The position numbers and the translations under genes are program-made. Source: Dimargaris cristalligena (lineage: Eukaryota). Taken from it: a stretch of DNA of 51,785 nt. Numbering within the stretch: position 1 is the first letter of the stretch; every line of letters starts with the position of its first letter. This document shows, one piece after another, positions 1,600 to 26,756 of this stretch. Under the pieces are notes generated by a model that ran no database searches, was not told the DNA's origin, and saw only the letters and a program-made list of their open reading frames with translations. The DNA is taken from positions 1 through 51,785 of the forward strand of contig ML002272.1 in NCBI GenBank assembly GCA_003614675.1. The letters run 5' to 3'.

Positions 1600-1911
1600 T
1601 TAACCGCCGAAACCGTACAGGGTACGGCCCTGGCGTTTGAGGGCGTAGACGACATCGAGGGAGGTGACGGTCTTGCGCTTGCCGTGTTCGGTGTAGGTGA
1701 CGGAGTCGCGAATGACGTTCTCGAGGAAGACCTTGAGGACGGTACGGGTTTCTTCGTAGATGAGGCCGGAGATACGCTTGACACCACCACGACGGGCGAG
1801 ACGGCGGATGGCGGGCTTGGTGATGCCCTGGATGTTATCGCGCAAAATCTTGCGATGACGCTTGGCGCCACCCTTTCCAAGACCCTTTCCGCCTTTACCG
1901 CGACCAGTCAT
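1600..1911 (-). CDS. H4: Histone H4 (copy A), intronless, 103 aa
   Basis: [21 protein letters not shown]...[11 protein letters not shown]. Confidence 0.99.
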
Positions 1912-3476
1912 GTTGAGCTGAGGGGGAGGGTGTATGTGTGAGGAGAGGGTTAGGGTTAGGGTGTGAGAGGAAGGTTACCTCGGAGTTGGCTGGAAGAGAA
2001 GATGAGAGAGGGCCTGGTGGTTACAATTAAGAGAGAGATAGGATAGACATTGAATTACGAAGAGAGGGGAAAGGGAATGGCTTATATATACGACCAACCT
2101 GTGCAGCACAGCCCCCTTTATTATCCACCAGAGAAATAGGGGAGGAGATAATCCCCCGTTGGAAATACCAAGGAACAGTGAATACCACCCGCCTATTGCG
2201 CGGAAAGGAATGAAACACACTCGTGGAAGAAACTCATTTTGCAGTATAAAAAGACGCGTCGCCATTGTTCATTGTTAGTCATTGGGACGCGTAACCACAG
2301 TGATGAGACTGGAATGCTCGCAGTTCCACCACAGTGACACGGCCATCCACCCCGCTGATTCATTCCCTAGACATGCCACGAAAAGCATCCTTGCTTAGCT
2401 TCCTTTCGTCAAGGATGAAAGCCAACCATCGAGCTGTACTGTATCGCGACGTCGCTCGAAATAAACTAGTCGGCCCCATACCGGATATCCAGCAGTCTCG
2501 TTGGCTATACCCCGATAATCACACACTCTCTTCTATGCTATACTTCAAAACTAGCCTATTCCCTGATGTTAAAATCGGCACATGGCTGGGATTCTGATAA
2601 CCACTACTTGTTCAGCTGCAATAAGCCAAAGGTGAATATAGGAACACTTTCCATCACTGAAGGAGTAAGCCTTTTTTAATGAGTGATGCCCCAATCGTGC
2701 GGACCGGTTATTTAGCCGCTGACTTTACAAAATACGGTAATGGCATGCCTTTGCGGTATTGGTAATAAGGGTTTATAAGATTGCGGTGACATCTACCAAT
2801 TAGGCCATCAAGTGAATTTAGCAGGCTTCATAAACCGGATTTAAGCTTTCGGGAAATTCTATACTTGATTTGGATCACTAGCCGTGGGAAAGGGAGCGAG
2901 AATAGACTTTGGGTTTGGCATCGTTTGTCCCTTTTTCGGCTTGGGGAGATTATTATTATTATTATTATTATTATTAGGTTTAGGACAAGTAAACAAGACC
3001 TTTTGTCTTTTAAAAGGAACAATGGCGCCTCTTTTCCACTTCGCGATAAAAAGAGAGGATGGTACGTGTTTCTTGGTTGCGGACTGCAAGCTGTAGTGCA
3101 CGCGCGTCTCCTTACCCCGTGAAGTGTTCTGGAGGGATCATCCACTCTCCATAGTGTGCCTTTTCCCCTTGGCACGCCTCCCAAGCTTCAGACTGTCCAA
3201 ACGCCAGCCCTAGCATTTCCCATCGCGGGAGTCCAGGCGCGTTCTTGCCTGCACTGATATTACACTGCACGTGTTTCTCTTCTTCATTCTTTATACCTTT
3301 CCGCGTTGGTGGGACCTGGATGATTGAAGACTCGCGAATAATTTAGTTATTTGTATAAATACAGTTGGGCTTCTCCTTCCTTGATTTATTACACCACCAC
3401 TTCGCATCACATTGGAATTGCCTTAGTCAAGCTCGCCACCGGTTTCCCTTTAACTCCCCCCCTTCACACAGTCAAC
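1912..3476. promoter_or_regulatory. Divergent H4-H3 promoter A with TATA boxes and MCB-like (ACGCGT/CGCG) elements
   Basis: Lies between head-to-head H4 and H3. TATATATA at ~2083-2090 and TATAAA at ~3354-3359. ACGCGT at 2254-2259 and 2287-2292. Further CGCG cores near 3042, 3101, 3238, 3302 and 3333. Confidence 0.7.
2949..2976. repeat. (ATT)9 microsatellite
   Basis: Read directly. It explains the poly-I/L/N spurious ORFs here. Confidence 0.95.
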
Positions 3477-3887
3477 ATGGCCCGTACCAAGCAAACCGCC
3501 CGCAAGTCCACCGGTGGCAAGGCCCCCCGTAAGCAGCTCGCCACCAAGGCCGCCCGCAAGTCCGCCCCTCCCGCCGGTGGCGTCAAGCGCCCCCACCGTT
3601 ACCGTCCCGGTACCGTCGCTCTGCGTGAAATCCGTCGCTACCAGAAGACCACGGAGCTGCTGATCCGCAAGCTCCCCTTCCAGCGCCTGGTCCGTGAAAT
3701 CGCCCAGGACTTCAAGACCGACCTCCGCTTCCAGTCTTCCGCCATCGGTGCCCTTCAGGAGGCTTCCGAGGCTTACCTCGTCTCCCTGTTCGAAGACACC
3801 AACCTGGCTGCCATCCACGCCAAGCGCGTCACCATCCAGCCCAAGGACATCCAGCTGGCCCGCCGTCTCCGTGGCGAGCGCTCTTAG
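3477..3887 (+). CDS. H3: Histone H3 (copy A), intronless, 136 aa
   Basis: ATG at 3477: [21 protein letters not shown]...ARRLRGERS. Residues 87-90 are SAIG (fungal, H3.3-like). AATAAA downstream at ~3990. Confidence 0.99.
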
Positions 3888-4166
3888 ATTGCCCTTTAAT
3901 TAATTATAATCTGCACGCTGTTAGGAGGGGCCTGCAATTTTTCGGAAACTAAGTTTTTTTAATGCTGTACATTATTCACAATAGTATTCAATAAAGATCA
4001 AATAACAATTAAACGACTGATTCGCCCCTTCTGGCTCTTAGTAAAAGTGTTTTTGTACGTAGGTTCGCCGGTCGTTTTAATATAATAGTCTAGCGGCAAC
4101 CGGTGCTGGTGTGTTATTGGTGGAATAACACGCATAATTCATTTATAAGTTGAAGGGTTGGCTTTC

Positions 4167-23963: not shown

Positions 23964-24374
23964 TTAAGAGCGCTCGCCACGGAGACGACGGGCCAGCTGG
24001 ATGTCCTTGGGCTGGATGGTGACGCGCTTGGCGTGGATGGCAGCCAGGTTGGTGTCTTCGAACAGGGAGACGAGGTAAGCCTCGGAAGCCTCCTGAAGGG
24101 CACCGATGGCGGAAGACTGGAAGCGGAGGTCGGTCTTGAAGTCCTGGGCGATTTCACGGACCAGGCGCTGGAAGGGGAGCTTGCGGATCAGCAGCTCCGT
24201 GGTCTTCTGGTAGCGACGGATTTCACGCAGAGCGACGGTACCGGGACGGTAACGGTGGGGGCGCTTGACGCCACCGGCGGGAGGGGCGGACTTGCGGGCG
24301 GCCTTGGTGGCGAGCTGCTTACGGGGGGCCTTGCCACCGGTGGACTTGCGGGCGGTTTGCTTGGTACGGGCCAT
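23964..24374 (-). CDS. H3: Histone H3 (copy B), protein identical to copy A
   Basis: [10 protein letters not shown]...RLRGERS. Confidence 0.99.
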
Positions 24375-26444
24375 GTTGACTGTGTAAAGGGGGTGTTGTG
24401 TGGGGGGAATAAATACGCTGTGCTTTGGTTAGCGGGATGAGATGGAGAAATACAAATAGACGACAACTAATTACAATGGGCACGGGCCGGAGGCAGTATA
24501 TATACACAAAGGGAAAAGGAGGGGAACTAACTAGTCAACTTCCCAAGATGGCCAATGATATAATGTGCATTTAAAACAGCAGGGGAGGGAGGGTATGTGA
24601 CAGGGGAGGAGTCGTCGATAAGGATGATTGGATGGTGATGGCCCCCCCCCTCCCAATGATAGACGCGTGTCTTTATGAATACAGTTTAGTTGCTCTGTGC
24701 TTGGTCCCCGAAAATAAAAACGCCCGATGGTCGCCCGCGCGTCCACCCTTAATCAGCCTGCACGCGTTCCCTTTTTCCACTTCTCACTAACCCTTGGAGC
24801 ATCATTGAACATTCACCAACCCTAAGCAATGGAATGTAATGTACTTGACTTTAGTAAGGAGCAGCCAGCCCCTCGCTAACTAACCAAGTTTCCTTGCAAT
24901 ACTTTTACCCTGCACATTAAGAGGGTTTAATGTCTCGGGAATGAAAAGAAATGGGCGTTTTATGGTCCAGGACATGGCGCTTTGAACAGCAAGCATGTTT
25001 ATACTTGCTTTATTCAGTCAATGTTACCTCGAGGTTATTGAATTGGATGAATGGCAGACGCTCACCCTTCTATTCGGCCCTTTAGAAATAAAGTAATGCT
25101 ATTTGAGAAGTACAATTCAGCCAGTCTCTAATTTCTATGATCTTCTACTGATTCAACTATACTTTCCGGTACATAAGCTACAGATGCGTGCTTGTCAGCA
25201 TAGGAGATACATATCCCATCAATTAACTACTGCGCTAACAGCTGTGTAGGGTTGAAGCGGAGTAATTCCCTGTAATTACTCCTTGTAAGTAATAGGGCGT
25301 ATTTCTAAATAAATAAAACCTATTAAGGGGTGTGACTTTTCAGGGTAAAATGGCTGAGCAATTCTTTCCACGGGGCTGAGTCCAGCCGGGCAAATGAAAA
25401 AGGGGTTGCTGCTATGTGCTGTGTTGTATTGTGTGTTGGTGGTGGCATCAGAATGCGGTGATGATGAAGAAGGGGGGGGGTTCCAGATAGGGTAGAAGCG
25501 CGCTCTGATTGGGTGCCCAGGAAAATGGGACGATGGTCACTCCCCACTATGATGAACTCACAGCGTCTGACCATCCCGCTCATTCAATTTATGGCCAATC
25601 ACCAAGTGGGGTGAGTTTATCATGGTATAGACCCCCCACCCCATCTACACTGCACTACACTATACTATCATGTACTGTGGTGGTGCTCCTTGGGGTTACG
25701 CTCCGCCAATTTTCGGCCTGGAAAGATCCGAAAGTTCGCAACCGGGCCTTGGCTTGGCCACCGATTTGTACCCGCACGTTTCGACTCAACCTACGCCTTA
25801 ATGCATTGGAATACTATCGCCGCCATGGAGACGGCCGTTTCCCGTCAAAAGGAGGAGGTACGTATTCTCCGACGATTAGATAGGGTGTGCACGCACACGC
25901 ATACATACACATACACATACACATACACATACACATACACATACACATACACATACACATACACATACACGATGGCTTGGGCGGGGGAGGTCACTCATCG
26001 TCCTACTTCTCTTTGGTAGGTAGAGTGTGAACGGGGGGAGAGATCAACCAGAAAACGCGTTAGAGGTGGGGAGGGGGGGGGATCGGCTGCTGGCCGGGCA
26101 GTGGCTACGCGCCCCAAAGAGGGTGAACGCGCAAGTGGGCTCAGGGGCTGTGACCATCCGTCCATTTTGCTGCCTTCCCCCGTGGTTGGTCAGTGTATGC
26201 GCATCTATTCGTCGCTTACCATCAGACTCATCCTTACAAGGTTGGTCTTTTGTGTTCATTTTCTTTCGCCTATATAACCGAGGCTCCCGCTCCCTGCTTT
26301 ATTCCGACACTTGTCTATTCTTGTTCTCTCAAAACACCACTTAAGCGGCCTCTTCTCTCTTCCTGCCAACTCCGAGGTAACCTTCCTCTCACGCCCTACC
26401 CCTCAACTCCCCCCTCACACATACACACTCCCCTTCAACTCAAC
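24375..26444. promoter_or_regulatory. Divergent H3-H4 promoter B with TATA boxes and MCB elements
   Basis: TATATATA at ~24497-24504 and TATATAA at 26271-26277. ACGCGT at 24663-24668, 24762-24767 and 26055-26060. Confidence 0.7.
25885..25971. repeat. (CATACA)11 hexamer microsatellite inside an 87-bp alternating purine/pyrimidine tract
   Basis: gtgtgcacgcacacgcata(cataca)11cg, read directly. Confidence 0.95.
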
Positions 26445-26756
26445 ATGACTGGTCGCGGTAAAGGCGGAAAGGGTCTTGGAAAGGGTGGCGCCAAGCGTCA
26501 TCGCAAGATTTTGCGCGATAACATCCAGGGCATCACCAAGCCCGCCATCCGCCGTCTCGCCCGTCGTGGTGGTGTCAAGCGTATCTCCGGCCTCATCTAC
26601 GAAGAAACCCGTACCGTCCTCAAGGTCTTCCTCGAGAACGTCATTCGCGACTCCGTCACCTACACCGAACACGGCAAGCGCAAGACCGTCACCTCCCTCG
26701 ATGTCGTCTACGCCCTCAAACGCCAGGGCCGTACCCTGTACGGTTTCGGCGGTTAA
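26445..26756 (+). CDS. H4: Histone H4 (copy B), identical to copy A
   Basis: ATG at 26445; MTGRGKGG...LYGFGG. Confidence 0.99.

Follow-up and report, generated by a model that had tools for sequence, protein, structure and literature searches.

Nearly identical histone H3-H4 gene pairs in mirror orientation around a 20-kb block of Dimargaris cristalligena: probable concerted evolution and one orientation in two assemblies

The closest known counterpart of the locus reported here is the flip/flop region of Saccharomyces chromosome XIV. According to passages of the study by Salzberg et al. (2022, PMC9731477), it spans 24 kb and is bounded by two 4.2-kb inverted repeats that are continually homogenised by conversion. 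Both of its orientations recur in all eight species, while no flip was recorded in about 53,800 mitoses and 950 meioses. Gene conversion has also been documented for the duplicated histone genes of yeast (PMC4700949). As for the number of H3-H4 pairs, passages of PMC13525598 list one pair plus a lone H4 gene in A. nidulans and N. crassa, two pairs in S. cerevisiae and three in S. pombe. Here we describe a locus of Dimargaris cristalligena, a mycoparasitic fungus of the Dimargaritales (Kickxellomycotina, Zoopagomycota), in which two H3-H4 pairs face each other across a 20-kb block of other genes. The locus lies in a stretch of 51,785 nucleotides (assembly GCA_003614675.1, contig ML002272.1, positions 1 to 51,785), and this whole stretch is called the window below. 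We consider it likely that the locus represents two old H3-H4 pairs under concerted evolution, with the same orientation in both assemblies of the species.

Like the flip/flop region, the Dimargaris locus comprises some 20-24 kb of ordinary genes bounded by homogenised inverted paralogues. The repeats themselves are different, as those of Saccharomyces are 4.2 kb long and carry sporulation (Centroid) genes, whereas those of Dimargaris are 0.31-0.43 kb long, consist of a histone open reading frame (ORF) and form two nested pairs. Both orientations are documented for the yeast region, whereas the Dimargaris block was seen in one orientation in two of two near-identical assemblies. Moreover, the yeast histone pair HHT2-HHF2 is situated inside the flip/flop block, whereas the Dimargaris pairs are situated at the block ends (yeast data from passages of PMC9731477). 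Given repeats of only a tenth of the yeast length, crossovers are expected to be even less frequent in Dimargaris, and by analogy the locus should work like the homogenisation half of the Saccharomyces system.

The likeness to the converted yeast histone genes (PMC4700949) is that duplicated H3 and H4 genes are kept alike at the nucleotide level under strong selection. The yeast pairs are located on different chromosomes, however, where a crossover amounts to a translocation, whereas the Dimargaris pairs are in cis and inverted, so that a crossover amounts to an inversion. The fungal pairs treated in passages of PMC13525598 share with those of Dimargaris the head-to-head layout, the common intergenic region and, in part, the number of two pairs per genome. 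Their shared promoters measure 200-300 nucleotides, while the Dimargaris spacers are far longer (1.57 and 2.07 kb). In addition, the Dimargaris pairs are linked as mirror images with 20 kb between them, and the words 'inverted' and 'inversion' do not occur in those passages. Histone clusters at an inversion breakpoint in Drosophila were considered as a further parallel and rejected, since they involve insertion and not recombining repeats (PMC3355041). No case of an inversion mediated by histone-gene repeats was found in the open-access papers searched. The kind of system, namely histone conversion and homogenised inverted repeats, is already known; what sets the present locus apart from the systems compared here is the linked, mirror-image arrangement of H3-H4 pairs around a 20-kb non-histone block.

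The features of the locus are collected in Table 1. In both pairs the H3 and H4 ORFs are placed head-to-head around a common intergenic region, and each pair is thus a divergent one. The first-pass annotation of this DNA had described the order H4(-) H3(+) [block] H3(-) H4(+), and all four ORFs were found exactly where it had placed them. The H3 proteins of copies A and B are identical to each other (136 amino acids), as are the H4 proteins (103 amino acids), and the identity of H4 is supported by a protein cluster that contains the exact sequence and whose members carry the name histone H4. The same annotation had claimed nested, near-perfect inverted repeats, which was borne out by base-by-base comparison. 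The H4 ORFs were identical at 312 of 312 positions and the H3 ORFs at 409 of 411, the sole differences being codon 129 (CGC/CGT, synonymous) and the stop codon (TAG/TAA).

Table 1. Features of the histone locus and of its surroundings in the window (copy A, left; copy B, right).
Feature	Position	Strand	Remarks
H4 copy A	1600-1911	-	103 amino acids, no intron
H3 copy A	3477-3887	+	136 amino acids, no intron, stop TAG; PF00125, E 9e-46
H3 copy B	23964-24374	-	no intron, stop TAA; PF00125, E 5e-46
H4 copy B	26445-26756	+	103 amino acids, no intron
Inner (H3) inverted repeat	arms 3458-3886 / 23965-24393		429 nucleotides, 2 mismatches; 20,078 nucleotides separating the arms
Outer (H4) inverted repeat	arms 1600-2006 / 26350-26756		408 alignment columns, 97.06% identity
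H4 copy A leader	1912-2006	-	only H4-upstream stretch still alignable to copy B (26350-26444)
Spacer / promoter A	1912-3476		1,565 bp, divergent intergenic region
Spacer / promoter B	24375-26444		2,070 bp, divergent intergenic region; (CACATA)n-like microsatellite at 25890-25976
Unique block between H3 copies	3888-23963		20,076 bp
Unnamed gene(s) (earlier 'coiled-coil')	~4.2-5.9 kb		no Pfam match
BIM1-like	6072-6617 (elsewhere 6069-6599)	-	Pfam
CK2a-like kinase	8815-10038	+	Pfam
Unnamed gene (earlier 'Zn-knuckle')	~10.9-12.0 kb		no Pfam match
SPRY-LisH-CTLH (GID1-like)	13526-15427	+	Pfam
Nramp	16490-18367	+	Pfam
Coa3	19082-19474	-	Pfam
CCCH+RING (CWC24-like)	20727-21209	+	Pfam
gamma-SNAP		+	annotated models P0142/P0143; PF14938, E 1e-18 / 3e-17
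RING-H2 membrane protein gene (outer orientation marker)	27833-29845	+	Pfam; P0121, 100% identity; P0146 of the second assembly = H4R33_000818
Mitochondrial carrier exon	39412-39651		Pfam; outside the histone locus, ordinary-looking
FAD/NAD-binding reductase	41810-42946	-	Pfam; outside the histone locus, ordinary-looking
Cupin_8/JmjC-like gene	43725-45042		Pfam; outside the histone locus, ordinary-looking
GH16 glycosidase exon	48523-49209		Pfam; outside the histone locus, ordinary-looking

The two nested repeats were recovered concordantly by a repeat finder and by blastn (word size 7). The H3 arms showed a blastn identity of 99.53%, and the 10 mismatches and 2 gap openings of the H4 arms all fall within about 95 nucleotides upstream of the ATG. 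These are the only inverted-repeat pairs of at least 60 nucleotides in the window, the sequence of which contains no N. Hence, homogenised inverted repeats flank a unique block at this locus. Because an Rfam scan of the window returned 0 matches, and with them no histone 3' stem-loop, and a transfer RNA (tRNA) scan returned 0 genes, no alternative repeat substrates were seen. The intronless state of the histone genes is not shared by two neighbours, as the gamma-SNAP gene (~21830-23676) and the CWC24-like gene (~20465-21212) are split into several exons.

Identity between the copies breaks off abruptly at the H3 and H4 stop codons. Upstream of the start codons, homology extends over about 20 nucleotides for H3 (19/20 identical, ~95%) and over about 95 nucleotides for H4 (~87% identity, two indels). 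Outside these limits the four pairs of 300-nucleotide flanks aligned no better than shuffled sequences (z = -1.00, 0.08, -0.23 and 1.08). The interiors of promoters A and B, leaders apart, had 0 words of at least 11 nucleotides in common, compared with a shuffle mean of 1.04. A larger and older inverted duplication was also considered, but tblastx between the inner flanks and between the outer flanks found nothing. Since the flanks and promoter interiors are at the shuffle level and tblastx gave no paralogy, the repeated parts, judged by these comparisons, are the ORFs and short leaders only, and a young segmental duplication is ruled out to the same extent.

A codon test was applied in which the two copies were treated as independent draws from the histones' own codon usage. 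This usage is mixed (Arg, CGT 16 / CGC 17; Gly, GGT 12 / GGC 10 / GGA 2), and the GC content at third codon positions (GC3) is 0.82 for H3 and 0.72 for H4. The expected numbers of differing codons were 43.4 (H3) and 34.0 (H4), whereas 1 and 0 were observed, and the log10 probability of full identity was -25.0 and -20.3, respectively. Because 34.0-43.4 differing codons would be expected and only 0-1 are seen, it appears that codon bias and protein-level selection cannot explain the identity of the ORFs. Both H3 differences are confined to the last 25 nucleotides of the ORF, at the edge of the homology, and the locus shows the identity at synonymous sites with diverged flanks by which concerted evolution is recognised. 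Taken together, random flanks, perfect cores and H3 differences at the edge only are, at the level of sequence, the classic signature of concerted evolution via gene conversion. The apparent erasure of synonymous differences provides strong indirect evidence that the copies recombine with each other, and we infer conversion as the mechanism.

The locus thus holds two ordinary divergent H3-H4 pairs that flank, in inverted orientation, 20 kb of unrelated housekeeping genes. The duplication is probably old, given that neither the promoters nor the 3' flanks retain more than random similarity. We propose that two forces hold the coding regions near-identical, namely repeated intrachromosomal conversion of the non-crossover, non-allelic type and purifying selection acting on the histones. 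The tracts of conversion would be limited to the surviving homology, which runs from about ATG-20 (H3) or ATG-95 (H4) to the stop codon, and such confinement could explain why identity ends at the stops and why the H3 copies differ in the last 25 nucleotides only. Rare conversions resolved as crossovers might invert the block (crossover in H3) or the block with both promoters (crossover in H4), and four isomers would be possible in principle. As the homology amounts to only 0.31-0.43 kb, crossovers are presumably rare, and the orientation would be effectively fixed on laboratory and assembly timescales.

The leader of H4 copy A carries a telomere-type double hexamer, TTAGGGTTAGGG, at 1950-1961, about 40-50 nucleotides upstream of the start codon. 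The matching stretch of H4 copy B is degenerate, and a further copy is located inside the block at 4890-4901 in the other orientation. Histone promoters of fission yeast have an AACCCT box. A regulatory role is possible for the double hexamer upstream of H4 copy A.

The orientation of the block was compared with a second D. cristalligena assembly, in which the locus is carried on a 99,903-bp contig. There, the RING gene bears the locus tag H4R33_000818 (KAJ1992942), the gamma-SNAP gene 000821 (KAJ1992945) and the BIM1-like gene 000828 (KAJ1992952). The order in the window, when counted from the RING gene, is RING, H4, H3, gamma-SNAP, CWC24-like, Coa3, Nramp, GID1-like, unnamed, CK2a-like and BIM1-like, which gives exactly 818/821/828. 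Had the block been inverted through either repeat pair, the BIM1-like gene would be expected near tag 822 and the gamma-SNAP gene near 829. The accessions of the window's own annotation agree (Nramp RKP39422, gamma-SNAP RKP39425, RING RKP39428), and the 99,903-bp contig also encodes exact copies of the H3, H4, Nramp and GID1-like proteins. Because the three tags fit the window order and not the inverted one, the block has one common orientation in two of two assemblies of D. cristalligena, and the flipped form was not seen. For the exact H3 and H4 proteins, records exist from just two contigs, namely that of the window and the 99,903-bp contig, which suggests that the species has no genes for these exact proteins other than the two pairs.

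A total of 227 ORF pieces (129 + 98) were scanned against Pfam at E ≤ 1e-3, the cut-off for all Pfam results given here, and no recombinase, integrase or transposase domain was detected among them. Since no such domain, RNA family or tRNA gene was found in the window, a programmed switch of the recombinase type (e.g. Hin/Gin or 2-micron FLP) is excluded within the reach of these tools. It is the histone ORFs that form the repeats, not short specific recombinase sites. The first-pass annotation had reasoned that a crossover between inverted repeats inverts the intervening DNA, which is established logic, and had concluded that the locus could exist as orientation isomers. Nothing found here supports inversion, as both assemblies have one orientation, no recombinase was detected and the repeats measure only 0.31-0.43 kb. 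The comparison with another isolate, which had been put forward as a check, was run on the second assembly and returned the same orientation with little power. It had also been argued that the inverted arrangement protects the inner genes from loop-out deletion. That inverted copies avoid such deletion is correct as geometry, but a protective advantage is an adaptive story for which no sign of selection was seen here. Close inverted repeats can also give rise to dicentric or acentric products, which are harmful. The abstract of PMC5159554 mentions that isochromosomes form between centromeric inverted repeats.

Several points have to be set against the reading of two old pairs under concerted evolution with one orientation. 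The case for conversion is drawn from one genome, and the comparison of orientation consists of three locus tags together with the assumption that tag numbers run along the contig. The two assemblies are near-identical (BIM1-like, 175/176; RING, 570/570 aligned residues with a gene-model difference only) and may come from the same or a very close strain, and the comparison between them is weak. Gene order is blind to the double-crossover isomer as well, which has exchanged promoters around a block of unchanged orientation. Both published D. cristalligena genome projects that were examined used short reads and SPAdes (PMC6784888, PMC9866270), one of them with amplified single-cell libraries and k up to 55 (PMC6784888). 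If the two assemblies are short-read ones, the path through the 405-bp identical H3 core hangs on read pairs, and a minority isomer would be invisible. A high-frequency mixture of isomers is unlikely, which we infer, rather than measure, from the unbroken passage of both assemblies through all four repeat copies.

A recurrent flip/flop was weighed against this background, in which crossover-linked conversion between the histone ORFs would invert a 20-kb or 24.5-kb segment and both orientations would occur among Dimargaritales strains or species. The structural prerequisites are present, with inverted repeats that are demonstrably homogenised, and the 24-kb block of Saccharomyces flips via the same mechanism, about 4% of conversions being quoted as crossovers in passages of PMC9731477. 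In the relative Tieghemiomyces parasiticus, moreover, the block genes are on a 22,123-bp contig and both RING copies on other contigs. Nevertheless, we regard this explanation as unlikely: the orientation is the same in both D. cristalligena assemblies, neither of which is broken at a repeat copy, and the repeats are some 10 times shorter than the 4.2-kb yeast repeats, for which the mitoses and meioses cited above yielded no flip (passages of PMC9731477). An assembly artefact was also weighed, by which a mis-join, for example from chimeric amplified DNA or a wrong repeat path, would have produced the second pair or the block orientation. The amplified libraries and SPAdes settings of the one project mentioned above would be compatible with it (same passages of PMC6784888), and the 405-bp identical repeat is too long for single short reads. 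However, the two pairs have different, unique promoters (1,565 versus 2,070 bp) and unique 3' flanks, and the H3 copies differ at two positions that adjoin their own flanks. The window contains no N, the second assembly has the same tag spacing, and five runs (3 samples from 2 studies, one sample of which may be the source) contain 0.90-0.97 of the sampled words of positions 1001-11000. All five runs are represented by Logan contigs, whose assembly from words of 31 letters leaves them unable to link the two sides of an identical repeat of 405 bp. Because the flanks are unique and the tag spacing of the second assembly matches, it is very unlikely that the second pair is a mis-assembly.

Hardly any weight is given to the remaining explanation, by which the ORFs alone were duplicated very recently (e.g. 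via complementary DNA, cDNA) or were made alike by selection on codon usage, and not by ongoing conversion. The intronless histone genes beside the split gamma-SNAP and CWC24-like genes would suit the former and the high GC3 the latter, but codon usage alone would leave 34-43 differing codons per gene. A cDNA copy would be expected to run into the 3' untranslated region, whereas identity halts at the stop codon. Both copies also retain the head-to-head layout and short homologous leaders (~95% for H3, ~87% for H4), which are older than the identity of the ORFs. Concerted evolution of two old pairs is thus the reading that we retain.

Relatives of the block were sought among other fungi. The best named matches of Nramp, RING, gamma-SNAP and BIM1-like all belong to Dimargaritales, with those of Nramp coming from Dispira simplex (72%), Dimargaris verticillata (69%) and T. 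parasiticus (73%). An Ascomycota affinity of the GID1-like protein was considered and discarded, as it reflects only the nearest large protein-atlas cluster and is misleading given the named Dimargaritales matches. On the 22,123-bp contig of T. parasiticus, the BIM1-like (IWQ60_009542), Nramp (009547) and gamma-SNAP (009548) genes have the same relative order as in the window, and the block is therefore, by this gene order, taken to be older than the genus. The RING copies of T. parasiticus (tags 010569 and 001653) are both on contigs other than that of the block, the contig of 001653 measuring 90 kb. The length of the block contig is close to the 20,076 bp of the block here, as if the assembly had broken at flanking repeats. 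BIM1-like, RING and gamma-SNAP are each present in two copies on different contigs in T. parasiticus, and two Nramp copies with at least 90% identity occur in both T. parasiticus and Dispira simplex. Most genes are found twice in T. parasiticus. The gene doubling in this species fits the non-haploid state suggested for it, together with 66% duplicated BUSCOs, in passages of PMC9866270.

The RING search gave 21 matches, among which 1 true orthologue outside the species was identified (T. parasiticus, 46% identity), and no orthologue of this outer marker was found among them for D. verticillata or D. xerosporica. The gamma-SNAP search gave 4 matches. In D. xerosporica the Nramp orthologue bears the tag H4R35_000176 and is located on a 123-kb contig; its counterparts are H4R34_003395 in D. 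verticillata and IWQ61_006868 and 002764 in Dispira simplex. In D. verticillata a partial H3 is located on a 1,285-bp contig, which has the look of a collapsed repeat, although this is only a hint. A metagenome scan with the CWC24-like exon matched 302 stretches, of which 191 were relatives, the best having 59% identity and belonging to distant fungi. When the 80 loci that were retained were checked by tblastn with 17 window protein pieces, a second window gene was present in 0 of 80, and no synteny was seen.

If the 20-kb block did flip back and forth on evolutionary timescales in Dimargaritales, via the fraction of homogenising conversions resolved as crossovers, which we consider improbable, it would be a second, independent flip/flop region, with up to four isomers from its nested repeat pairs. 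The selective pressure keeping the repeats alike would be obvious here (histone uniformity and dosage), unlike in the yeast case, and a recurrent inversion polymorphism would be tied to an understood cause, the need for identical histone genes. The yeast study (PMC9731477) was unable to name a comparable cause for its own repeats. If the block flipped, heterozygotes would also have recombination suppressed over the nine housekeeping genes. The supported part alone provides a clean case of concerted evolution confined to two histone ORFs in a little-studied, early-diverging fungus. It may further serve as an aid to annotation, and it cautions that assemblies from short reads might be interrupted or take a wrong path at such a locus.

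As for the genes of the block, seven of the nine names given in the first-pass annotation are supported by Pfam, while 'coiled-coil' and 'Zn-knuckle' had no Pfam match. By exact protein look-up, the outer ORFs 30424-31401 and 31801-32535 and the Coa3 ORF had no entry in the collection searched. The Nramp gene contains an uninterrupted ORF of 603 amino acids at 16559-18370, and the protein has the same length in the second assembly (P0147); in the window's own annotation it is represented by a partial protein of 379 amino acids only (P0004, RKP39422). The BIM1-like copper-acquisition gene has at least three distant paralogues on other contigs of this species, namely P0183, P0184 and the P0186/P0213 cluster, with 30-34% identity.

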